The notes: generated by a model not told the origin, from the sequence alone. 64,000 nucleotides of DNA from Bacteroidales bacterium (GCA_017999895.1 JAGNKY010000007.1:71285-135284); one strand, 5' to 3'; numbered from the stretch's first letter, positions 3,768 through 15,038 are shown. Numbers and translations: made by a program.

Positions 3768-5120
3768 ATGAAAAAATCACTCTTTATCCTTTTTGCATTT
3801 ATTTCATTGACAATTAGCGATAATGCTTTGTGTCAATGGAAAAAACTTATCGGCAAAGATCTTTCAAACTGGGAAGAGCTTAACGGAACGGCACCTTTCA
3901 AGCTCGAAAAAGGAACAATAATAGGAACAACCGTTGTCGGTTCACCTAACTCTTTTCTTTGCACAAAGGAGAAATACGGTGATTTCATACTTGAATTCGA
4001 TACATGGTTCGACCCTCAAATTAATTCGGGGGTTCAGATACGGAGCGAGAGCAGACCAGACTATCAGAACGGACGAGTACATGGTTATCAGATAGAAATG
4101 GACCCATCGGAACGTGCATGGTCAGGCGGAATTTATGATGAGGCACGCAGGGGATGGCTTTACTCGCTCGAAAGAAATCCGATAGGCAAAAAAGCCCTAA
4201 AAGTGGGCGAATGGAACCATTTCCGTGTTGAAGCTATCGGAAACTCAATAAGAACATGGGTAAACGGAATACCATGCGCCGACCTTGTGGACGATATGAC
4301 ACCCTCAGGCTTCATAGCACTTCAGGTGCACAGTATCGGCAAAGACACTTCAAAAGCAGGGCTTCAGGTTAAATGGAAAAATATCAGGATAATAACCTCA
4401 AATCTCGATAAGTATAAAACTCCTTATACCCCTGTTATCCCGCAGGTTAGTTTTCTTACAAACAAGCTTACCGACCGTGAGAAGGCCGAAGGCTGGAGAC
4501 TTTTATTCGACGGTCAGACTTCTGCAGGCTGGATGAACGCACTAACCGGAAAATTCCCCGATAGCGGCTGGGAAATAAAGAATGGAGAACTTATCGTCAA
4601 CCCTGCTACTAAAAAACCCGGAGGAGGCGGCGACATTGTGACAGTAGATAAATTTGCAGATTTCGAACTGATAGTTGATTTCAAATACACCAAAGGCGCA
4701 AACAGTGGCATTAAATATTTTGTTGATACCGAATCGGAAGGCGGTAAATATGCTTCAATAGGCTGCGAATATCAGATTCTCGACGACAGAAACCACCCGG
4801 ATGCAAAAGCAGGATTCGAAGGAAACAGAACTCTTGCCGGACTTTACGACCTGATCGCACCGAAGAACAAACGCGACAATGGCTTCGACCAGTGGAACAG
4901 GGCTATGATAATAGTGAATGGAAATAAAGTACAGCATTGGCTGAACGATAACCTTACGGTCGAATACGAAAGAGGCACTCCCGAATGGAAAGCATTGGTC
5001 GCAAAAAGCAAATTTAAAGACATAGAAAACTTCGGCATGGCAAAAGAAGGAAGGATTCTCCTGCAAGACCATGGAAACCTCGTATCGTTCAAAAATATAA
5101 AAATCAAGGCAAAAAAATAG
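3768..5120 (+). CDS. tandem DUF1080 (3-keto-disaccharide hydrolase-like, concanavalin-type) domain protein
   Basis: 450 aa with a signal peptide. Two repeated modules each end in a W.N(I/F)(R/K)I motif: LQVKWKNIRI and VSFKNIKIK. GDFILEFDTW / ADFELIVDFKY strands are typical of DUF1080. Confidence 0.75.
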   Translation: MKKSLFILFAFISLTISDNALCQWKKLIGKDLSNWEELNGTAPFKLEKGTIIGTTVVGSPNSFLCTKEKYGDFILEFDTWFDPQINSGVQIRSESRPDYQNGRVHGYQIEMDPSERAWSGGIYDEARRGWLYSLERNPIGKKALKVGEWNHFRVEAIGNSIRTWVNGIPCADLVDDMTPSGFIALQVHSIGKDTSKAGLQVKWKNIRIITSNLDKYKTPYTPVIPQVSFLTNKLTDREKAEGWRLLFDGQTSAGWMNALTGKFPDSGWEIKNGELIVNPATKKPGGGGDIVTVDKFADFELIVDFKYTKGANSGIKYFVDTESEGGKYASIGCEYQILDDRNHPDAKAGFEGNRTLAGLYDLIAPKNKRDNGFDQWNRAMIIVNGNKVQHWLNDNLTVEYERGTPEWKALVAKSKFKDIENFGMAKEGRILLQDHGNLVSFKNIKIKAKK

Positions 5121-5156
5121 AATAACCAATTTTCGATATTCAAGAATAACAGGCTT

Positions 5157-6764
5157 ATGAAACAAAGCCATATAGGAGCCTTACTGCTTTTAACCCCCTG
5201 CCTGCTTCCGGGATGTAAAAACAATGACCGGATTGTTCCTGAAGAAGAGAGGCCTAATATTCTTATTGCCATGGGTGACGATATCTCCTGGCCGCACATG
5301 GGAGCATACGGCACATCATGGATAAAAACTCCGGGATTCGATATGGTTGCAAAAAACGGAATTCTATTTTGTAACGCCTACACTCCAAATGCCAAATCAT
5401 CTCCTTCACGAGCATGCTTCCTGACAGGGAGAAACTCATGGCAACTCGAAGAAGCAGCTAACCACAACCCATATTTCCCTGTAAAGTTCAAGTCATTTAT
5501 CGAAACTCTCAGCGAAAAAGGATATTTTACCGGATACACTGCCAAAGGATGGGCACCTGGAGTAGCTCTCGACAGCACAGGAAAGCCGCGTGAACTTACC
5601 GGCAAAGCCTTCAATGCAAAAAAACAAATTCCTCCTGCCAGTGGAATGTCGAATAACGACTATGCCGGGAATTTCGAAGAATTTCTCAATTCGAAACCCG
5701 AAGGCAAACCTTTCTGTTTCTGGTATGGGTCGAATGAGGCTCATCGCAAATATGAATATGAATCGGGTATTAAAAGAGGAGGAAAACATCTCGAAGATAT
5801 TCCGTCAGTATTCAGTTTCTTACCTGATAATAAAATTGTCAGAACCGACCTTCTCGATTATGCGTATGAAATAGAATACTTCGACAGCCATCTTATAAGG
5901 ATGCTCGATTTGCTAAAATCAAAGGGTGAACTCGACAACACTATCGTAATCGTAACAGCCGATAACGGAATACCTTTCCCTCGTGTTAAAGGACAGGCTT
6001 ATGAATATTCCAATCACATACCTCTCGCAATAATGTGGAAAAAAAGAATTAAAAACCCGGGCCGGAAAATTTATGATTACATCAGTTTCATTGATTTTGC
6101 ACCTACAATACTCGAGGTTGCGGGTATTAACCAGAATGAGAGCGGGATGCAAAAGATAGAAGGAAGAAGTTTTGCAGACATCTTCTGGACAGGCAAAAAC
6201 AAAATTGTGGACAAAACACGTAATTATGTACTTACAGGCAAAGAGAGACATGATGTAGGACGACCTGACGACCAGGGTTACCCTATAAGGGGCATCATAA
6301 CTAACGGCTTTCTCTATCTGAAAAATTATAAACCGGGCAGATGGCCTGCAGGTAATCCCGAAACAGGCTATCTTAATTGTGACGGAAGCCCAACAAAATC
6401 GTGGATACTAAATCTCAGAAGATCAGGATATGAAACAAGATATTGGGAACTTTGCTTCGGAATGAGAGAAGATGACGAATTATACAATATTGGCAACGAC
6501 CCTGATTGCGTTAATAATCTTATAAATAATCCAGGCTACAGCTCTGTATGGCAGGAATTAAGCGAAAAAATGTTCAATTTGCTCCTTGAACAGGAGGACC
6601 CGAGAGCGCTTGGTAAAGGTGATATTTTCGACAAATATCCTTATGCAGGGGAAGAAGTACGTAATTTTTACAACAGGTTCATAAATGGAGAACTCACAAA
6701 ACAATCGGCCTCATGGGTTGACTCAACCGATTTCGAGCCTTTGCCTGAAAGAAAGAGGAAATGA
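5157..6764 (+). CDS. sulfatase (formylglycine-dependent family), lipoprotein, Ser-type active-site motif
   Basis: 535 aa. Lipobox LLPGC. Metal-site NILIAMGDDISW. The sulfatase signature reads S-S-P-S-R-A-C-F-L-T-G-R (S81 codon TCA at 5397-5399) where Cys-type enzymes have C-x-P-x-R. Confidence 0.85.
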   Translation: MKQSHIGALLLLTPCLLPGCKNNDRIVPEEERPNILIAMGDDISWPHMGAYGTSWIKTPGFDMVAKNGILFCNAYTPNAKSSPSRACFLTGRNSWQLEEAANHNPYFPVKFKSFIETLSEKGYFTGYTAKGWAPGVALDSTGKPRELTGKAFNAKKQIPPASGMSNNDYAGNFEEFLNSKPEGKPFCFWYGSNEAHRKYEYESGIKRGGKHLEDIPSVFSFLPDNKIVRTDLLDYAYEIEYFDSHLIRMLDLLKSKGELDNTIVIVTADNGIPFPRVKGQAYEYSNHIPLAIMWKKRIKNPGRKIYDYISFIDFAPTILEVAGINQNESGMQKIEGRSFADIFWTGKNKIVDKTRNYVLTGKERHDVGRPDDQGYPIRGIITNGFLYLKNYKPGRWPAGNPETGYLNCDGSPTKSWILNLRRSGYETRYWELCFGMREDDELYNIGNDPDCVNNLINNPGYSSVWQELSEKMFNLLLEQEDPRALGKGDIFDKYPYAGEEVRNFYNRFINGELTKQSASWVDSTDFEPLPERKRK

Positions 6765-6820
6765 ATAAAGAATAATTTTTATAAATTTCAAGTTATATTA
6801 AACCGAAAGCCAATCTACTT

Positions 6821-9800
6821 ATGAATCCAGAATCAATAAAAACAATTGCAGCAGTATTGATGCTGTCAGCCTTTTTTACGGGCGAGTCGTGCAAAGAGAA
6901 AACCGGCGATCCTATAAGTGTACCAGATTTTAAAACACTGTCAGGAGAGTTTAAAGAACCTCCTGCCGAATATACAACCTCACCGTTTTTTGTATGGAAC
7001 GGTGAAATAACACGTAGCGAAATAGATAATTTCCTTAATGAATTTTATAAGCAGGGCATAAAGCAGGTTTTTGTGCATCCCAGACCCGGGCTTATTACGG
7101 AATATCTTTCGAATGAGTGGTTCGACCTTTTCAAATATACTGTCGACCACGGTAAAGAACTCGGGATGAAGGTCTGGATTTATGATGAAAATTCTTATCC
7201 AAGCGGGTTTGCCGGCGGGCATGTTCCAGCTAACATGCCTGAGTCGTATAACCAGGGGCAGGGCCTCAGGATGAGAAAAACAGAGACACTTCCAGATACT
7301 GCTAATAAATTTTTCCTTATTCTGAAGGAAGAAAACGGTTCATTCAAAGATATCACTGGAACCTTGACGCAAGAAGAAGGAAAAAACAGTAAATATTATC
7401 TTTTCTGGAAAACGTACCATGAGAAATCGGGATGGTATGGCGGCTTCTCGTATGTTGACCTTCTCGTTCCAGGTGTGACTCAAAAATTTATCGAGCTTAC
7501 TATGCAAGGATATGAAAAATATACAGGCCAGGAATTCGGCAAAACGATTCCTGGAACATTTACAGATGAACCGCATATTAACTCTCCCGGTGGCATAAGG
7601 TTTACTCCCGATCTATTCGATGAATTCTACAAAAAATGGAACTATGACCTGAAAACAAATCTTCCATCATTGTTCGAAGAAACCGGCGACTGGAAGAAAG
7701 TGAGGCATAATTACACGCAAACGCTACTTCAACTTTTTATAGACAGATGGTCAAAACCGTGGAAGGAATACTGCGATGAAAAAGGGCTTAAGTTTACCGG
7801 ACACTACTGGGAGCATGAATGGCCGAATATGAAACATGGAGGCGACAATATGGCAATGTATGTATGGCATCATGTACCTGCTATCGATATGCTTTTCAAT
7901 CAGTTCGATGATTCATCCTCAAGGGCACAATTTGGCAATGTGCGTTCAGTTAAAGAACTTGCCTCTGCCGCAAACCAGGCAGGAAGAATAAGGAAACTGA
8001 GCGAAACATACGGTGGCTCAGGATGGGATCTTACATTCGAGGAAATGAAACGCAACGGAGACTGGGAATATGCACTTGGAGTAAACTTTATGAATCAGCA
8101 CCTCACATTTTTCACAATGGCAGGAGCAAGAAAGTATGACTACCCCCCAACTTTCGACTATCACGAACCATGGTGGGATAATTATAAATTACTGGCCGAT
8201 CATTACGCAAGACTGTCTCTTGCACTGTCAGCAGGAAAACAGATAAATGAGATACTTGTTCTCGAACCTACAACCACAACATGGATGTACGACTCCTATA
8301 TCAAAGCCAATAATAAACTAAATGTTATAGGACAGGCCTTTCAGACATTTGTAACAACACTCGAAAAGAAACAGGTGGAATTCGATCTCGGGTCGGAAAA
8401 TATTATAAAAGATATGGGCTCGGTGAAAAAAGGCAGATTCGTTGTCGGGGCGTGCTCATATCATACTGTTGTAATCCCTCCCATGATGGAAAATCTTGAT
8501 CTGCCCACTTTCACTCTTCTCAGGGAATTCGTTACAAAAGGAGGCAGACTTATTTTGTTTTCATCACCCTCTATGGTTGACGGAGCGGAAAATGCAGAAC
8601 TGAAAGAATTTTTAGACGGCGGAAAAAATAATATCATCAAACTCACCGAACTAAATGATAAAGAATTATCAAACTATTTTGAAAACAAGGCCGTAAGAAT
8701 AAATATTACGGAAGGGCAAGGCCTTTATCACCACACACGGACACTGAATGACGGGATACTTGTATTCCTTGCCAATTCAAACCCCAAAAACAGTGTATCA
8801 GGTACACTTAATATTTCCGGCATTTCAGCAATTGAACTGAATACTCTTAATGGTGAAATAAAAAATTATCCTTTCGTGAAAAAAGGAACAGGGGTTGAAA
8901 CAACGTTCAGTCTGTATCCTGCCGGAAGCCTTTTACTTTTCTTTCCAGCTTCTAATGCTTCCATATCTCCTGGTGTACAGGAAACCATAAATGAAACTGA
9001 AACTGAAATTGCATCTTCCACTGGAATAGTTGTCTCTCGCGATAAACCAAATGCTCTTACCATAGATTTCTGTGATCTGGAACTGGGAGGGAAAACGGAT
9101 AAGAATATTCATGTTTTCGATGCTACCGACAAGGTTTTCAAATATTATGGATTCACTTCCGGAAATCCATGGAATCACTCGGTTCAGTACAAAAAGAATA
9201 TAGTCGAAAGAGACACTTTCGGCTCAGGAACAGGTTTTACGGCAACATACAGGTTTACATTGAAAAATCTCAAAGACAAGTCATCTCTGATGGCAATAGT
9301 GGAACGTCCGGGACTTTGGAATGTGACTCTTAATGGAACCGAAATAAAACCTGAGCCTGACTTATGGTGGCTCGACCGTGAGTTCAGGGTGTTTCATATC
9401 GGCAGTATGGTAAAGGATGGCTCGAATGAATTGAAGCTGAATGCTTCACCTATGAAGATTAATGCCGAAATTGAACCGGTTTATATTGTCGGCGACTTCT
9501 CAGTCGAACCAGCGGAAAAAGGATGGATTATCACACCGCCTGCAAAAGCTCTCACAAAGGGCACATGGCTTAATCAAGGCCTGCCTTTCTATTCTTGGGG
9601 AATCACTTATTCAAAGGATTTCGAGGTTGACACAGTTAGTGGGAAATATTATTTAAAAGTATCTGACTGGAAAGGAACAGTTTCCGAAGTATTCGTAAAC
9701 GGCAAAAAAGCAGGTGTAATAGCATTCCCTCCTTATGAGGCGGATGTAACTGCCTTTATATCCAGCGGAGTTAACAAGGTCGATCTCAGGATAACCGGAA

Positions 9801-9958
9801 GTCTTAGAAACCTTGAGGGACCTCATCATAATAATCCGCCGGCAGGCATTTCATCACCGTGGAGCTGGAGGAATGTCAAAAGCTATCCTTCAGGAAAGAA
9901 TTACAAACTTTATGACTACGGACTTTTTGGTGATTTCACACTGCTGAACAGAAGATAA
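6821..9958 (+). CDS. large secreted glycoside hydrolase-like protein (GH106 / alpha-L-rhamnosidase-like, jelly-roll C-terminus)
   Basis: 1045 aa with a signal/lipoprotein-like N-terminus. The N-terminal block PFFVWNGEITRSEIDNFLNEFYKQGIKQVFVHPRPGL...VWIYDENSYPSGFAGGH matches my recollection of proteins annotated as Glyco_hydro_106-like. Family unverified. Confidence 0.5.
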   Translation: MNPESIKTIAAVLMLSAFFTGESCKEKTGDPISVPDFKTLSGEFKEPPAEYTTSPFFVWNGEITRSEIDNFLNEFYKQGIKQVFVHPRPGLITEYLSNEWFDLFKYTVDHGKELGMKVWIYDENSYPSGFAGGHVPANMPESYNQGQGLRMRKTETLPDTANKFFLILKEENGSFKDITGTLTQEEGKNSKYYLFWKTYHEKSGWYGGFSYVDLLVPGVTQKFIELTMQGYEKYTGQEFGKTIPGTFTDEPHINSPGGIRFTPDLFDEFYKKWNYDLKTNLPSLFEETGDWKKVRHNYTQTLLQLFIDRWSKPWKEYCDEKGLKFTGHYWEHEWPNMKHGGDNMAMYVWHHVPAIDMLFNQFDDSSSRAQFGNVRSVKELASAANQAGRIRKLSETYGGSGWDLTFEEMKRNGDWEYALGVNFMNQHLTFFTMAGARKYDYPPTFDYHEPWWDNYKLLADHYARLSLALSAGKQINEILVLEPTTTTWMYDSYIKANNKLNVIGQAFQTFVTTLEKKQVEFDLGSENIIKDMGSVKKGRFVVGACSYHTVVIPPMMENLDLPTFTLLREFVTKGGRLILFSSPSMVDGAENAELKEFLDGGKNNIIKLTELNDKELSNYFENKAVRINITEGQGLYHHTRTLNDGILVFLANSNPKNSVSGTLNISGISAIELNTLNGEIKNYPFVKKGTGVETTFSLYPAGSLLLFFPASNASISPGVQETINETETEIASSTGIVVSRDKPNALTIDFCDLELGGKTDKNIHVFDATDKVFKYYGFTSGNPWNHSVQYKKNIVERDTFGSGTGFTATYRFTLKNLKDKSSLMAIVERPGLWNVTLNGTEIKPEPDLWWLDREFRVFHIGSMVKDGSNELKLNASPMKINAEIEPVYIVGDFSVEPAEKGWIITPPAKALTKGTWLNQGLPFYSWGITYSKDFEVDTVSGKYYLKVSDWKGTVSEVFVNGKKAGVIAFPPYEADVTAFISSGVNKVDLRITGSLRNLEGPHHNNPPAGISSPWSWRNVKSYPSGKNYKLYDYGLFGDFTLLNRR

Positions 9959-10037: not shown

Positions 10038-10055
10038 TGCGGAGAGAGGGGGATT
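10038..10055 (-). repeat. 18-nt direct copy of the 3' end of tRNA-Ser (T-loop/acceptor 3' strand + 2 nt)
   Basis: tgcggagagagggggatt at 10038-10055 is identical to 10136-10153, which covers tRNA positions 73-87 plus CA. No matching T-stem 5' strand lies next to it. Confidence 0.85.
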
Positions 10056-10090
10056 ATTCGCTTCGCTCATGATCCCTTAGTGTGACTTAT

Positions 10091-10135
10091 ACAACAGGCA
10101 AAGGGCTGAAATAATTTCAGCCCTTTGCCTGTTGT
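10091..10135. repeat. 45-nt perfect palindrome (22-nt arms) abutting the tRNA-Ser 3' end; likely bidirectional terminator
   Basis: acaacaggcaaagggctgaaat-a-atttcagccctttgcctgttgt. The arms are exact reverse complements. It sits 2 nt from the tRNA discriminator base. Confidence 0.8.
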
Positions 10136-10137
10136 TG

Positions 10138-10224
10138 CGGAGAGAGGGGGATTCGAACCCCCGGTATAGTTTCCTATACGGCAGTTTAGCAAACTGCTGG
10201 TTTAAGCCACTCACCCATCTCTCC
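10138..10224 (-). tRNA. tRNA-Ser (anticodon GCU), type II with long variable arm
   Basis: Folded by hand: a 7-bp acceptor stem (GGAGAGA/TCTCTCC), a 3-bp D stem and a 5-bp anticodon stem. The anticodon loop is TT-GCT-AA, the variable arm has 6 bp, the T arm is GGGGG-TTCGAAT-CCCCC, and the discriminator is G. No encoded CCA. Confidence 0.93.
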
Positions 10225-10260
10225 TTAATTCTTTCTTTTATACTCTTGCATCAACCCATC

Positions 10261-10319
10261 CGGCAGTTTATCCGCCACCTGGCGGATGGTTTAAGCCACT
10301 CACCCATCTCTCCTTAATT
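10261..10319 (-). pseudogene. tRNA-Ser remnant (5' acceptor + D arm copy, plus a 10-nt anticodon-stem match), non-functional
   Basis: A 33-nt exact repeat (10287-10319 = 10198-10230) covers tRNA positions 1-27 plus 6 nt of upstream flank. In addition, TAAACTGCCG (minus strand, 10261-10270) equals tRNA positions 37-46. No T arm is present and no 7-nt anticodon loop can be drawn. Confidence 0.8.
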
Positions 10320-10384
10320 ATTCTTATTCGCCATAGGAGCATGGCAAAAATATAAAAACCTGCTTTAAGGACAAAATAATTTTG

Positions 10385-12667
10385 TTACTTAAGCTCTTTC
10401 AACAATCCGGCCAAATATCTAAAATTTTCATGAGTCTCCTCATCCAGATCTTCGGGCCTGATAATTCCCGATTTAATATCGCTCAGCAGACGACTGAGAA
10501 GGAAGTTACGCGGAAGATTCTTATCTGCAATATAAACCGAATTAGGGACAGTAATCCCTTCTCTTGTCTTTAGCACATGGTTTTTAAAATCCAGAGTAGA
10601 TAAAAGGTCTTCTGCATTAAGGAATCTGCGATCAGTTGATATAATGAAATCATTTTGGTCTTCTTCAATTATGAATATGTTCTCTTTTAAGAATTTTTCA
10701 AGCCCTTGCTCATTCTCGTTACCGAAAAGAAGAACTGCAAATTTCAATCCCCATCCAATCATTATGTTGCACATTAAAGGTATTGATGAAGCACCTGTCG
10801 AGGGAATAATACATATTTTTCCTTTAAAACCGGTCACGTTCATTACACATGAAAGCATATAGAAGGTACCTATATCGTTGACTATAAGGTTTATTTTTCC
10901 TGTTGAAAATCCTTCTGTCATAATAGGGTTCCCCATTATATTTTGAAGAGGTGTAAGTGTATCAGGTGATGCAGAGGAAAGCTTCAACGGGTCGAGTACT
11001 CTAGTGGCACTTTTAAAATTATTAAGGTTATCGCGTTGAACGGCAAGCACCCGATGGAGCTTATTTATATCAATAAGTTGAGGGGAATGGGTTGTATAAA
11101 TTATTTGCATTTTATCTTTTATATCTTCAAATACTTTCAATACATCTTCCTGTGCTCGCGCATGAAGGCTTATTCCGGGCTCATCTACGAGTAGAACCAT
11201 AGGTTTTTTACTACGGATTGCCGAGGCTTTCAGCTCCATATAAAAAGAAAGAAACCATCTTACACCGCGACTTCTCTGTTTCGGATAAAGGCGTTCGCCT
11301 TCGTCCTTAACCCAGAATTCAAGATAAGGTTTCCCTGCTTTATCACCATAGTTCAGACTATAGTGGTCAAGTTCGAATTGGATTTTTATTTTATCATTTC
11401 TGCTTACGCACTGTTGCCAGAAATCCTGAAAGTTTAAAGTAATAGTATTATTGAGATTTTCGATTTTTTGTTTAAGTATTCTGCTCGATGGTTGCTGAAA
11501 AAAAGAATAATCCAGTTGTGCCAGAGTAAGAAAATTTCTGGCTGCCTTGTAACCTTCTACCTGTTCGTTTCCGGTAATGATATCTTCAAGGTCTATTCTG
11601 TTTGGCAGGAGGCTTCCGAAATCTTCGAATAGTTCTATAACCGGGGAAAATTCGAAATATTTTCTACCAAGCATCTCTGTAGTATACTGCGACTTATATC
11701 TTTTAATTGCCTCCTCTGCAAGTTGTTCAGCTTCAAGTTCATTACGTCCTTCCATAAGGTAACCACAAAAGGCAATGTGTGAATCGAACTCGGACATTAC
11801 CTTTTCATTTTCGAGCCGGGTATTACGATATTCATTCAATACTTTTGTCCACTCAGGATCCTTATTTTCTCCCATTGGTACCAGGAGGAGCGTCATTTTC
11901 TGGTGATATTCCTCTAGCTTTGAAGAAAGGGAGAGAAGTTTCCCTTCGAGCTCTTCGAGTCTCTTATTAAGAGAGTTATATTTTTGTCCGGCATTTATGA
12001 TTTTTGCCCTTAGGCTCAACTCTTGTTTCAGTCTTTCTTCCTCATTTACAATTTCATCGTAAATTCGTTTTTGCTCCGGAGCTAATTTAGCTGTAATATC
12101 CTGTTCCGATTTCCTTAAAAATCTGTTTATTATACTCTTTCCTGATTCAAGATTAACATTTCTCGCCAGTTTAGTTTTCTTCGATAAAATCTCAGAAAGT
12201 TTATTTTCTAAATTCCTTATAAAATCAAGTTCCGATTCAAATTTCAATTTTACTTCATCGAGGTAAAGTCTCCATGCATTTTCAAGCGAGTCGAGATATT
12301 CGCTTATTTCTCCACTGACTTTTATAACAGATGTAAAATCTTCAAGCCAGGTTCTGGTTAACTCAACATGATTAAGATTGGCAAGAAGTTCTTTTAGTTC
12401 AGTTCCGGGATTTTCTGTAACCTCAAGTAGCCAACCTGGTTTAACGGAAAAACGGCAGGATATTTCCGGAAGAGAAAGGTCGCTCCTTAGAACATCTTCT
12501 GAAATGACTCCTGTATAGAATGCTCTCAAACCTTCAAGAATTGAAGTCTTGCCCGATTCATTCTGACCAATCAAACAGGTTATGTTATCAGGCGAAAGGT
12601 TCTGCCATTCTGTATCAACAATCGAACGGAAATTCCTTATTCTGAAAGCATACAGTTTCATTTCCAT
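10385..12667 (-). CDS. coiled-coil ABC-type (AAA_15/OLD-like, Rad50/SMC-like head) ATPase with C-terminal Toprim-like region
   Basis: Likely start MEMKLYAF at 12667; the track start at 12742 would overlap the upstream gene. The ATPase motifs are:
- Walker A: GQNESGKTS
- signature-like: QRSRGVRWFLSF
- Walker B: VLLVDEPGISLH
- H-loop: YTTHSP
A roughly 250-aa K/E/L-rich heptad-like insert lies between Walker A and the signature. The C-terminal beta-alpha-beta pattern is NLIVND...ICIIPSTGASS...FAVLLFGNENE. Confidence 0.75.
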   Translation of the reverse strand: MEMKLYAFRIRNFRSIVDTEWQNLSPDNITCLIGQNESGKTSILEGLRAFYTGVISEDVLRSDLSLPEISCRFSVKPGWLLEVTENPGTELKELLANLNHVELTRTWLEDFTSVIKVSGEISEYLDSLENAWRLYLDEVKLKFESELDFIRNLENKLSEILSKKTKLARNVNLESGKSIINRFLRKSEQDITAKLAPEQKRIYDEIVNEEERLKQELSLRAKIINAGQKYNSLNKRLEELEGKLLSLSSKLEEYHQKMTLLLVPMGENKDPEWTKVLNEYRNTRLENEKVMSEFDSHIAFCGYLMEGRNELEAEQLAEEAIKRYKSQYTTEMLGRKYFEFSPVIELFEDFGSLLPNRIDLEDIITGNEQVEGYKAARNFLTLAQLDYSFFQQPSSRILKQKIENLNNTITLNFQDFWQQCVSRNDKIKIQFELDHYSLNYGDKAGKPYLEFWVKDEGERLYPKQRSRGVRWFLSFYMELKASAIRSKKPMVLLVDEPGISLHARAQEDVLKVFEDIKDKMQIIYTTHSPQLIDINKLHRVLAVQRDNLNNFKSATRVLDPLKLSSASPDTLTPLQNIMGNPIMTEGFSTGKINLIVNDIGTFYMLSCVMNVTGFKGKICIIPSTGASSIPLMCNIMIGWGLKFAVLLFGNENEQGLEKFLKENIFIIEEDQNDFIISTDRRFLNAEDLLSTLDFKNHVLKTREGITVPNSVYIADKNLPRNFLLSRLLSDIKSGIIRPEDLDEETHENFRYLAGLLKELK

Positions 12668-12671
12668 CAAT

Positions 12672-13490
12672 TTACAGTTTAAATCCAAAGATAAGGACGT
12701 CGTCAACCTGTTGCATATTCCCTTTCCATTCAAAAAATGCATTCTCCAGAAATTCTTGTTGCTTATTCATATCCTCGTAAGAGGATGCCACTTCGAGAAT
12801 TTTTCTAAAGCTTTTGTTCTTGAGCTTCTTATTTGTCTTTTCTCCAAACTGGTCAGGGAACCCATCTGAAAAGAGATAGAATTTGTCATCAGGCTGTGTT
12901 TCAATAACTATATTTTTAAATGCGCGCTCAGTAACAGGTGCAAGGCCAATAGTCATGAAATCGGGCTTATATTCTGTCAGCTCTCCGTTTCTTATCATTA
13001 CCAGAGGGCGGTTTGCACCTGCAAACTGCATTGTTCCGGTTTTTTTATCAATAATGCATAAACCTATGTCAATGCTATCCTTTGTTTCTGCTTTTTCGCC
13101 GGTTTGATGAAGAGCTTTCATCACTCTTTCTCTCATCATATTGAGTATCCTGTTGGCTTTGAAACAGTCGCCAGATTGCAGAATTTCATTTAGAAAATTT
13201 ATTCCAAGTATGCTCATTAAAGCACCTGGCACACCATGCCCTGTGCAGTCACCTGCAGCAATACATGTATAATCTTTGTTAGAGAATGCATAATAAAAAT
13301 CTCCGCTTACAATATCCCGTGGCAAAAAGACTATGAAATAATCCTTTAGAAGCCCTGAAAGAAAATTATTATCGGGCATCAGTGCATGCTGTATCATTCC
13401 TGCATATCTTAAGCTTGCAAGATGTTCATCCAGAGCCTGTGAACTCGATTGCAAAAACAAATCGTTCCGTTGAGACTTACCTTCCAACAT
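12672..13490 (-). CDS. stand-alone PP2C/PPM (SpoIIE/RsbU-type) serine phosphatase domain protein
   Basis: 272 aa. Motifs IVSGDFYY, AAGDCTGHGVPGALMS, FAGANRPL, YLFSDGFPDQFG and QVDDVLIFGFK. Only about 40 aa precede the catalytic domain, so there is no sensor domain. Its stop (12672-12674) lies 4 nt before the ATPase ATG. Confidence 0.85.
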   Translation of the reverse strand: MLEGKSQRNDLFLQSSSQALDEHLASLRYAGMIQHALMPDNNFLSGLLKDYFIVFLPRDIVSGDFYYAFSNKDYTCIAAGDCTGHGVPGALMSILGINFLNEILQSGDCFKANRILNMMRERVMKALHQTGEKAETKDSIDIGLCIIDKKTGTMQFAGANRPLVMIRNGELTEYKPDFMTIGLAPVTERAFKNIVIETQPDDKFYLFSDGFPDQFGEKTNKKLKNKSFRKILEVASSYEDMNKQQEFLENAFFEWKGNMQQVDDVLIFGFKL

Positions 13491-13631: not shown

Positions 13632-15038
13632 TTATCTTCTTACAAGAAGAGTTACATTTTCAACATGATGTGTCTGCGGAAACATATCCACAGGCTGCAT
13701 TGTTTCAACCCGGTATTTTTCCGATATAATGCTAATATCCCTTGCCTGAGTGGAAGGGTTACATGAAACGTAAACAATTCTCGACGGAGCGGCTGAAAGA
13801 AGCGACCTGATAACTTCACCGTGCATACCTGACCTGGGAGGATCGGTAATAACAACATCGGGATACCCATATTCATCAAAAATACCACCTGAAAGCATCT
13901 TCTTGATATCGCCTTCAATAAACTTTACATTAGAACAGCCATTGAGTGAGGCATTGGCTTTTGCATCTTCGACTGCCTCAGCAACACATTCAACTCCTGT
14001 CACGCTTGCCGCTTCAGCCGAAATATAACATGCGATGGAGCCTGTGCCTGTATAAAGGTCATAAACAACTTCTTTTCCGGTAAGGCATGCCATTCTTTTA
14101 ATTGTTTCGTACAGTCTCGCTGCCTGAAGCGTATTCACCTGGTAAAAAGATTTTGGTCCAACCCTGTATTTCAAACCATTCATATTTTCGAATAAATAGT
14201 CCTCTCCGTAATAATGAATAGCTTCCATGTCACTTATACTATCGTTTCTCTTTGTATTTATTACATAAAAAAGAGATGTTACTTGCGGAAACTCTTTCTT
14301 TATAAAATCGAGTAACCCCTCAATATGCTTTTTATCGTACTGGCTAAAAACCATTATAACCATTATTTGTCCATCCGATGAATTTCTTATGATAAGGTTT
14401 CTCAGAAATCCGGTGTGGCTTTTCACATTGTAAAACTGAAGATTCAATGTCAGGGCATAATCTCTTATTGCATTTCTTATTCTGTTTGCTGGTTCAGGCT
14501 GCAGATAGCACTCCTTAATGTCTATCACACGGTCGAAAAATCCACGCTTATGAAAACCGAGGGCTTTCTCCCTGTCCGGTTCTTCACCTGAAAGTATTTC
14601 ATTTTCAGTAAGCCAGCGACGTGAAGAAAAAGTATATTCGAGTTTATTCCTATAGTAGTATTTTTGCGGGGATTCAAGAACCGGCATAACATTCTCGGGA
14701 TATACTTTACCGATCCTTTCAATATTGTCTTCCACGATTTTCTTTTTATACACGAGTTGTTTTTCATAACATATATGCTGCCATGTGCATCCTCCGCATT
14801 CACCGAAATGAGCGCAAATCGGGTTTACCCTTTCAGGCGAATATTCATGAAATTTTACTGCCACTCCCTCGAGGTAATTCTTTTTTCTTGCTGTGATTCG
14901 TATATCGACAACATCACCCGGAACCGACAGCGGAACAAACAGCACCATGCCGTCAATCCTCGCAACAGCGCGGCCTTCGGAATCCATCCCGCTTATCTTT
15001 ACTTTTTCGATTAATGAAGGTTTCTCTGAACTGCTCAT
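13632..15038 (-). CDS. rlmD: 23S rRNA (uracil-C5)-methyltransferase RlmD/RumA family
   Basis: 468 aa. N-terminal TRAM-like domain, 4-Cys cluster CAHFGECGGCTWQH, and a SAM-MTase core (DLYTGTGS, DPPRSG, VSCNP). Confidence 0.85.
   Translation of the reverse strand: MSSSEKPSLIEKVKISGMDSEGRAVARIDGMVLFVPLSVPGDVVDIRITARKKNYLEGVAVKFHEYSPERVNPICAHFGECGGCTWQHICYEKQLVYKKKIVEDNIERIGKVYPENVMPVLESPQKYYYRNKLEYTFSSRRWLTENEILSGEEPDREKALGFHKRGFFDRVIDIKECYLQPEPANRIRNAIRDYALTLNLQFYNVKSHTGFLRNLIIRNSSDGQIMVIMVFSQYDKKHIEGLLDFIKKEFPQVTSLFYVINTKRNDSISDMEAIHYYGEDYLFENMNGLKYRVGPKSFYQVNTLQAARLYETIKRMACLTGKEVVYDLYTGTGSIACYISAEAASVTGVECVAEAVEDAKANASLNGCSNVKFIEGDIKKMLSGGIFDEYGYPDVVITDPPRSGMHGEVIRSLLSAAPSRIVYVSCNPSTQARDISIISEKYRVETMQPVDMFPQTHHVENVTLLVRR

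Follow-up and report, generated by a model that had tools for sequence, protein, structure and literature searches.

Members of the OLD family are classified according to the gene they are paired with (no partner, a helicase, a retron or a split Toprim) and, with one archaeal exception, are treated as defense nucleases. Here, we analyzed a two-gene locus in a 64,000-nt stretch of DNA from a Bacteroidales bacterium (GCA_017999895.1, JAGNKY010000007.1:71285-135284; the whole stretch is referred to as the window). A gene for a small PP2C phosphatase (272 aa; 12672-13490, minus strand, stop codon TAA at 12672-12674) lies upstream of a gene for an ATPase of 760 aa plus stop (10385-12667, minus strand, ATG at 12667, stop codon at 10385-10387). 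The pair appears to represent an undescribed OLD clade of Bacteroidota which is associated with a PP2C, expanded in its coiled coil and, as predicted from its motifs, often nuclease-dead. This clade adds an enzymatically different kind of partner, a PP2C phosphatase, to the OLD family.

Relation to described systems

Class 1 OLD proteins (phage P2 Old; Thermus scotoductus OLD, TsOLD, PDB 6p74) resemble the window ATPase in that a single polypeptide holds an N-terminal ATP-binding cassette (ABC) ATPase with an insert, plus a Toprim domain at its C-terminus. In contrast to them, the window protein lacks the three metal-A ligands of the Toprim site, contains a coiled coil of ~220 aa, has a PP2C partner and is chromosomally fixed with vertical inheritance. 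It is the ~600-aa relatives, solitary, Toprim-intact and found in mobile or restriction-modification contexts, that resemble typical class 1 proteins. GajA of the class 2 Gabija systems shares the overall fold (Foldseek E values of 1e-10 to 2e-9), but its Toprim domain is active, it binds ATP without hydrolyzing it, and its adjacent gene encodes the UvrD/PcrA-like helicase GajB, whereas the window ATPase has PP2C, RlmD and tRNA genes as neighbors and no adjacent GajB-like helicase. The class 4 PARIS system (AriA-AriB) combines, as we propose for the window pair, an ABC ATPase that serves as sensor or scaffold without nuclease chemistry with a separate effector. However, this effector is a Toprim/DUF4435 tRNase, AriA has no Toprim domain, and PARIS is mobile and phage-borne; the window ATPase is partnered by a PP2C instead of AriB and keeps a Toprim-like domain. 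AriA is the top PADLOC match (residues 3-532), covering the same span of 373-374 positions with a score similar to that of the Pfam family AAA_15. Regarding the retron-associated class 3, no reverse transcriptase was detected among the neighbors, and the NCBIfam Eco8 effector model reached 43.6 bits versus a cut-off of 250. The PtuA models of Septu hit only ABC motifs, and no HNH gene is adjacent. Class 5 corresponds to the U11 clade of Sulfolobales with an active nickase, and its protein Cran1 is vertically inherited and has a non-defense role (PMC12796447). We liken the Bacteroidota clade to Cran1 by evolutionary pattern, not by sequence: both are OLD clades of one order with vertical inheritance, an apparently non-defense function and a crucial ATPase domain, whereas Cran1 is an active nickase, lacks a PP2C partner and is archaeal.

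The original prediction had drawn an analogy to Lamassu (LmuA-LmuB), which comes down to gene order alone, i.e., a small putative effector gene upstream of one for a coiled-coil ABC ATPase. LmuB is of the SMC/Rad50 type and LmuA is a nuclease or another Cap4-like effector, whereas the window ATPase is of the OLD type with a Toprim remnant and has no LmuA-like effector; no Lamassu model is among the best 25 of 101 PADLOC matches. On the phosphatase side, the small PP2C, which is closest to the catalytic domain of SiaA, has the same metal-site motifs as RsbU, SiaA and SpoIIE and a putative N-terminal coupling helix. Unlike these enzymes, it has no fused sensor and is located next to an OLD-family ATPase instead of a STAS substrate or GHKL kinase, neither of which was found near the pair in the window or among the 25 commonest of 103 Pfam families in 104 flanking genes from 15 loci. 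A TerY-P triad is not formed either, as the PP2C has no PADLOC match and no vWA protein or kinase is adjacent.

Searches of both proteins with PADLOC, NCBIfam and Pfam yielded generic ABC-motif matches for the ATPase and no full-length named system. The earlier claim that no named system has a PP2C partner holds for PADLOC 2.0, NCBIfam and the literature on OLD classes, and in the literature searched no paper linked SpoIIE/PP2C proteins with an OLD or AAA_15 ATPase. A PP2C in a preprint on PADLOC 'embedded genes' is an unrelated candidate, and the latest version of the CoCoNuT paper has no PP2C content. Automated calls such as 'OLD endonuclease', or of AAA_15 as a defense marker, would mislabel this locus.

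An OLD-family ATPase with an expanded coiled coil

The ATPase matches Pfam families AAA_15, AAA_21, AAA_23 and SMC_N across residues 3-545 (AAA_15 at residues 3-532 with an E value of 1e-25); Pfam models gave nothing for residues 560-760. In an AlphaFold2 model based on an alignment of 86 sequences (mean predicted local distance difference test score of 85.6), four long helices (residues 120-338) interrupt the ABC head, which is followed by a beta-alpha-beta domain (592-677) and a helical tail. The best Foldseek match of this model in the PDB is TsOLD (6p74, E 3.6e-11), and the TsOLD alignment, like those to GajA (8u7i, 8x5i and 8sm3, at the E values given above), extends past the ATPase. ABC heads of SMC, Rad50, PtuA and retron proteins come next, with E values of about 1e-9 to 1e-10 for cohesin, condensin and Rad50. 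Together with its N-terminal ABC ATPase, in which Walker A, Walker B and H-loop are all present, these matches place the protein in the OLD family (P2 Old, TsOLD, GajA).

For comparisons across relatives, one genome per species was scanned, and more than 547 species were found to encode relatives of the ATPase; the motif counts that follow come from the best 80 loci, whose ATPases are 39-96% identical to that of the window. In all 80 of them Walker A (GQNESGKTS, aa 34-42) is invariant, and little or no variation is seen in the signature-like motif, Walker B and H-loop. The ABC N-lobe (aa 1-119; 12311-12667, minus strand), which contains Walker A, has a mean pairwise identity of 0.80 within the syntenic clade described below. 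The C-lobe (aa 341-560; 10988-11647, minus strand) carries the signature-like QRSRGVRWFLSF, Walker B LLVDEPG and H-loop YTTHSP, and reaches an identity of 0.87 with 121 of 220 columns invariant. Between them, the coiled-coil insert (aa 120-340; 11648-12310, minus strand; predicted helices 120-174, 197-259, 271-305 and 310-338) is the least conserved part of the ATPase (identity 0.49). The split head with a coiled-coil insert that had been proposed from the sequence is thus recovered both in the invariant motifs and in the predicted structure. With ~220 aa, the insert is ~170 aa longer than in short relatives, being absent or short in the ~600-aa forms, and sits where the OLD dimerization insert sits. 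The equivalent insert is the dimerization domain in TsOLD and GajA (PMC10568477).

A degenerate Toprim-like domain

The C-terminal part comprises a Toprim-like beta-alpha-beta core (aa 590-690; 10598-10900, minus strand) and a helical region (aa 691-760; 10388-10597, minus strand; identity 0.64). Alignment of the family profile to phage P2 Old with hhalign (91% probability, E 1e-6) runs from the signature motif through the Toprim domain, and its register places N597, F648 and N650 of the window protein opposite E398, D453 and D455 of P2 Old. These three residues of P2 Old are metal-A ligands, each of which is required in vivo, and a TsOLD triple mutant showed 12-15-fold lower nuclease activity (PMC7049728). 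Since N597, F648 and N650 occupy the metal-A ligand positions, the degenerate OLD Toprim that had been called by eye is apparently a correct assignment, and the domain is predicted to be catalytically degenerate with all three ligands gone. The catalytic Glu and DxD missing here are present in short relatives and in some PP2C-linked long forms.

We assign homology of the C-terminal domain to the OLD Toprim with moderate confidence. A model of the domain alone has TsOLD as its top, weak match (E 0.017, probability 0.96), and searches with the domain alone against PDB sequences, Pfam and PADLOC returned nothing for the window protein. The same searches with relatives gave marginal matches, one to the GajA model (E 0.0019) and another to Pfam OLD-like_TOPRIM (E 0.044), and the PADLOC models for Old and GajA reach into the Toprim region in the intact relatives P0148 and P0134. 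The domain-only profile had no significant hhalign match to P2 Old, so that the register is fixed by the full-family profile. The domain is still constrained, with an identity of 0.62 versus 0.67 for RlmD, and an acidic patch (E686-D687...D693-F694) is kept even in Toprim-degenerate members: D693 is invariant and E686 and F694 nearly so in A1, and A2 shows an invariant F694 with almost equally fixed E686, D687 and D693.

A stand-alone PP2C phosphatase

The small protein matches Pfam SpoIIE (E 2.4e-15), and among solved structures it comes closest to the PP2C domain of SiaA from Pseudomonas (PDB 6k4e, E 2e-28, residues 25-271). The NCBIfam SiaA model scores 157 bits over the C-terminal part only, which is under its cut-off, and PADLOC gave zero matches. 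The metal-site residues, including the metal-binding aspartates and the GHG motif (D64, D81, G84-H85-G86, D209, D213 and D263-D264), lie in motifs that are invariant across 74 orthologues. Membership in the PPM/PP2C (SpoIIE) family is therefore indicated concordantly by Pfam and PDB, and all motifs quoted in the original prediction of a minimal SpoIIE-type phosphatase were found. The protein is thus predicted to be a stand-alone RsbU/SiaA-type PPM phosphatase with an intact catalytic site. Its sole non-catalytic element is a charged N-terminal helix of ~40 aa ahead of the catalytic domain. This element may be comparable to the helices of RsbU- and SiaA-type enzymes that couple sensor domains to PP2C domains.

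The PP2C-ATPase pair is conserved in different chromosomal contexts

Checking of the open reading frames (ORFs) bore out the proposed co-oriented arrangement, in which 4 nt separate the TAA of the phosphatase gene from the ATG of the downstream ATPase gene. A second in-frame ATG for the ATPase is located at 12742; the starts of homologues correspond to the MKL/MEMKL position.

Except for one short contig labeled Spirochaetes, the best 80 loci all stem from Bacteroidota metagenome-assembled genomes. In contrast to the solitary class 1 OLD proteins without a conserved partner, the ATPase has a PP2C ORF as its immediate upstream neighbor, on the same strand, in 75 of the 76 loci with upstream DNA and across the full identity range. 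A long form labeled Chlorobi (P0306/L090) is likewise accompanied by a PP2C. Gaps between the two genes are mostly short, with several called ORFs overlapping, and the distance matrices of the two proteins correlate (r 0.76, Mantel p 0.001).

At least three chromosomal contexts were observed. At ≥57% ATPase identity the order is RlmD-PP2C-ATPase, followed by tRNA-Ser at 64-96%; another clade has PyrD-OmpA-TPR-PP2C-ATPase; and in a third, a gene for a 1,121-aa Y_Y_Y-sensor-SpoIIE protein precedes the pair. Because flanking genes differ between clades, the adjacency appears to be kept by selection and not by mere shared descent. PP2C and ATPase thus form a genuine conserved module, as had been proposed, and with relatives of the ATPase in so many species representatives this pair is widespread. 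Confinement of the adjacency to close relatives, with housekeeping contexts elsewhere, had been put forward as evidence against the proposed defense-type system; the adjacency is not confined, as it persists down to 39% identity in several contexts, and these contexts are indeed housekeeping ones.

In the third clade (L049-L059, e.g., L059:1825-5190), the Y_Y_Y-sensor-SpoIIE gene often overlaps the small PP2C gene by 4 nt. Its product looks like a periplasmic-sensor-type phosphatase, and its C-terminal SpoIIE domain resembles the small PP2C (E about 1e-50), which gives a hint of where the small PP2C came from, or of a pathway common to both.

The sole exception among the 76 loci, L083, encodes a long-form ATPase (L083:4902-7229) with an intact Toprim E and DDD and no PP2C within 5 kb upstream. 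It neighbors genes for a DEDDh exonuclease-GIY-YIG protein and a GH106-like protein, and may reflect the state before arrival or after loss of the partner. Another long, Toprim-intact relative (P0271, 806 aa; L091:1101-5638) has, instead of an upstream PP2C, a 703-aa TPR-repeat protein encoded 5 nt downstream, i.e., another partner for the same chassis.

Repeated loss of the nuclease site

An exhaustive family search returned 409 clusters (50% identity clustering) at E < 1e-30, including the ~600-aa forms without the long insert. Intact Toprim motifs, N-x-[IL]-[LV]-E-[ED] and [VL]-x-D-D-D-x-x-G, occur in the short forms and also in part of the long ones. For three of the short, Toprim-intact relatives the neighborhoods were looked up; all three have no PP2C and reside in defense or mobile settings: one lies between a BsaWI-type restriction enzyme and methyltransferases with conjugation genes nearby, one adjoins Eco57I and XhoI restriction-modification genes, and one adjoins a serine recombinase and a Gp49/HTH toxin-antitoxin pair. 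A neighbor-joining tree of 303 members places the short Toprim-intact forms, a diverse set, at the base and groups the Bacteroidota long forms together. These data are best read as descent of the module from OLD nucleases that were solitary, Toprim-active and of the defense-island type.

Several PP2C-linked long forms (e.g., L057, L058, L062, L068, L072, L080 and L084) keep E and DDD. In many sub-clades the DxD is replaced in different ways (LFxN, LTGxNK, VTEGD, VTDES, LKGD, LMDNP, IFDTPE or LNFGN), and parsimony on the neighbor-joining tree gives about 11 state changes for DxD and about 10 for the Glu. Because PP2C-linked sub-clades lost DxD differently, the partnership and the coiled-coil expansion probably came first and nuclease decay later, repeatedly. 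Repeated DxD loss with fixed ABC and PP2C motifs would be the signature of a function that requires ATPase and phosphatase and not DNA or RNA cleavage. The clade thereby offers a natural experiment, in which the metal site was lost many times with the ATPase and phosphatase sites fixed, and may reveal the role of an ABC head that has no nuclease to control.

The pair behaves like a resident chromosomal block

The gene upstream of the pair encodes a TRAM plus U5-methyltransferase (RlmD/RumA-like) protein (13632-15038, minus strand; assigned by Pfam), which lies 141 nt from the PP2C start and serves as the syntenic upstream anchor. Relatives with ~64% identity on contigs of 0.6-1.2 Mb have the same order as the window, GWxTD, (ABC-F, acyl-ACP thioesterase), RlmD, PP2C, ATPase and tRNA-Ser, and RlmD is found upstream of PP2C at ≥57% ATPase identity in all loci whose upstream flank is on the contig except L027. 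Among 30 genomes with this synteny, the distance matrix of the ATPase correlates with that of RlmD (r 0.85, Mantel p 0.001), and the ATPase evolves at 0.96x the RlmD rate; its two ABC lobes (0.80 and 0.87) are more conserved than RlmD (0.67).

Base composition is ordinary as well. The lower G+C content claimed for the pair from single lines did not persist in equal-size windows, where its 0.377 compares with 0.387 +/- 0.025 (38th percentile), and its tetranucleotide distance is at the 57th percentile within the window. The 104 flanking genes from 15 diverse loci are housekeeping genes according to Pfam (dihydroorotate dehydrogenase, SSB, TsaD, pyruvate kinase, RlmN, permeases, ABC-F), and PADLOC found only generic-domain matches and no defense-island context among them. 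No integrase was found among the window neighbors, and viral contigs in IMG/VR contained distant short forms only, none with PP2C. A metagenome scan with RlmD for empty sites returned six loci, none of which is informative on presence or absence of the pair in the syntenic clade. With ordinary composition, stable synteny, RlmD-matched divergence and housekeeping contexts, the defense or conflict island that had been suspected is not supported. Thus, in our best reading of the sequence comparisons, the pair is a vertically inherited operon of environmental Bacteroidales that behaves like resident cellular genes.

Possible functions of the module

We regard the chances as about even that the OLD-family protein has been co-opted for a cellular and not a defense role, in which it senses or scaffolds at the expense of ATP and a PP2C provides the output. 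The OLD-derived protein would have given up its nuclease role and would act as an ATP-driven sensor or scaffold, dimerizing via its enlarged coiled-coil insert. It would bind and gate the small PP2C, where we infer both the physical interaction and the direction of control, and the output would be a Ser/Thr phosphoprotein, encoded elsewhere, that the PP2C dephosphorylates. The Y_Y_Y-sensor-SpoIIE gene ahead of the pair in one clade fits such a signaling setting, and Cran1 provides a precedent for cellular use of a vertically inherited OLD clade. A more specific version, to which we give somewhat less than even credence, is that the domesticated OLD ATPase serves as an ATP-dependent regulatory subunit of the PP2C, that its nuclease site decayed repeatedly after the partnership was formed, and that the clade constitutes a further context-based OLD class. 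If this version is true, the module would be the first link of an ABC-Toprim sensor chassis to Ser/Thr phosphatase signaling, a bacterial counterpart of Cran1 and a tractable case of a defense-type chassis taken into a cellular role.

Several points weigh against such a cellular signaling role. Next to the pair there is neither a gene for a kinase nor one for a STAS protein or another obvious substrate of the PP2C, which leaves the signaling pathway hypothetical, and gut Bacteroidales contigs with RlmD at 52% identity have no pair beside RlmD. Moreover, chromosomally fixed defense genes exist. The Toprim-intact PP2C-linked members may reflect ancestral, and perhaps in some cases current, nuclease-based defense with the PP2C as a co-effector. 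With respect to the window protein itself, the assignment of its own domain as a Toprim is of moderate strength, coming from the family profile and a weak domain-only fold match. The acidic patch (E686, D687, D693) might be a remnant metal-B site, and TsOLD metal-A mutants retain some nicking (PMC7049728); residual nuclease activity of the window protein is thus conceivable.

Some of the same observations would suit a chromosome-fixed anti-phage or abortive-infection system, in which the ATPase senses infection (e.g., through a phage protein, DNA ends or depleted ATP) and the PP2C replaces the nuclease as effector, dephosphorylating key proteins and thereby shutting down the cell or the phage. 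The chassis is of a defense type, with the AriA, Old, PtuA and GajA models as best, all partial, PADLOC matches; the closest short relatives reside in defense or mobile contexts; some PP2C-linked members keep an intact Toprim; PARIS provides a precedent for a nuclease-less ABC ATPase that senses for a separate effector; and the two genes are tightly coupled in a manner which we take to resemble sensor-effector operons. We nevertheless consider this serious rival the less likely explanation, as the 15 loci with 104 neighboring genes show no defense-island context, divergence is housekeeping-like and in step with RlmD, composition is ordinary, and in IMG/VR the PP2C-linked form turned up neither in viruses nor on mobile elements. 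Neither gene has a full-length match to a named system, the PP2C having no PADLOC match at all, and in the literature searched no PP2C is described as a stand-alone defense effector. A DNA maintenance factor of the SMC/Rad50/RecN or Cran1 kind, which the PP2C regulates (e.g., by stripping an inhibitory phosphate from the ATPase) or vice versa, would account for the Rad50/SMC-like architecture with its Foldseek matches to cohesin, condensin and Rad50 heads, for vertical inheritance and for RecA ~6 kb away in the window, and has a precedent in Cran1. However, the helices of its short coiled coil (~35-60 residues) make ring-type DNA entrapment unlikely, the cleavage site is lost whereas the Cran1 nickase stays active, linkage to repair or segregation genes is not conserved across clades, and no kinase is at hand to phosphorylate the ATPase, so that we find such a role improbable.

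Two further explanations have very little probability in our view. Recent integration of the pair as a genomic island at tRNA-Ser was suggested by partial tRNA copies on both sides of the tRNA gene and by a 98-nt insert enclosed by an 18-nt repeat that matches the 3′ end of the tRNA. This scenario is for practical purposes refuted: the order RlmD-PP2C-ATPase-tRNA-Ser is kept at 64-96% identity and RlmD-PP2C-ATPase down to 57%, composition is not distinct, there is no integrase, the copied 5′ half of the tRNA belongs to a variable tandem array (at least seven copies in L042) and is not an att site, and the tRNA lies between the pair and the 98-nt insert. That the two genes are unrelated neighbors on a shared transcript is just as hard to sustain given an adjacency that persists down to 39% ATPase identity through several context changes, their correlated divergence (r 0.76), and the mostly short gaps with several ORF overlaps.

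The tRNA-Ser locus and neighboring genes

Downstream of the ATPase gene, ARAGORN detected a tRNA-Ser(GCT) (10137-10224, minus strand) as the only tRNA there. The original prediction had interpreted partial duplications of this tRNA as scars marking insertion of the pair; this was not confirmed, as all relatives checked (L001, L003, L004, L005, L010, L028 and L042; 64-96% identity) have that tRNA after the ATPase. The copies comprise 36 nt of the tRNA 5′ part (10287-10322) and 18 nt of its 3′ end (10038-10055). An origin as att-site scars was considered and rejected in favor of a tandem array plus a small insert.

The repeat unit (10233-10322 in the window) consists of a 9-nt leader and the first ~27 nt of the tRNA, followed by a tail that contains a hairpin. 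One extra unit is present in the window, and the 96% identical L042 has at least seven tandem copies of a ~119-nt unit (L042:4160-4915) upstream of the same tRNA, broken by a run of N. The array thus consists of a variable number of truncated tRNA 5′ halves, for which promoter duplication, decoy transcripts and replication slippage are possibilities. Directly 3′ of the tRNA, on the side away from the pair, the 98-nt insert (10038-10135) is bracketed by an exact 18-nt direct repeat (10038-10055 and 10136-10153) and holds a perfect 22-nt inverted repeat (10091-10112/10114-10135). It is absent from the close relative L042 and looks like a small insertion or excision footprint, or else like a miniature element through which a terminator hairpin was introduced. 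Neither the array nor the insert bears on the origin of the pair, and the tRNA-Ser is probably not a functional part of the module. P2 OLD has been described as an abortive tRNase that surveys DNA defects (preprint, bioRxiv 10.64898/2026.07.10.737580); should OLD Toprims target tRNA, the conserved tRNA-Ser beside a putatively Toprim-dead OLD homologue could merit renewed attention, but for now we regard it as a coincidence.

According to Pfam, the neighbors in the window include glycan-degradation genes, rRNA/tRNA methyltransferases and RecA. Beyond the tRNA, a polysaccharide-utilization-type cluster (3768-9958) with genes for a 3-keto-disaccharide hydrolase, a sulfatase and a 1,045-aa GH106-like rhamnosidase is shared by the window and L042. 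Because this cluster is missing from the ~64% relatives, the tRNA marks a breakpoint of synteny.

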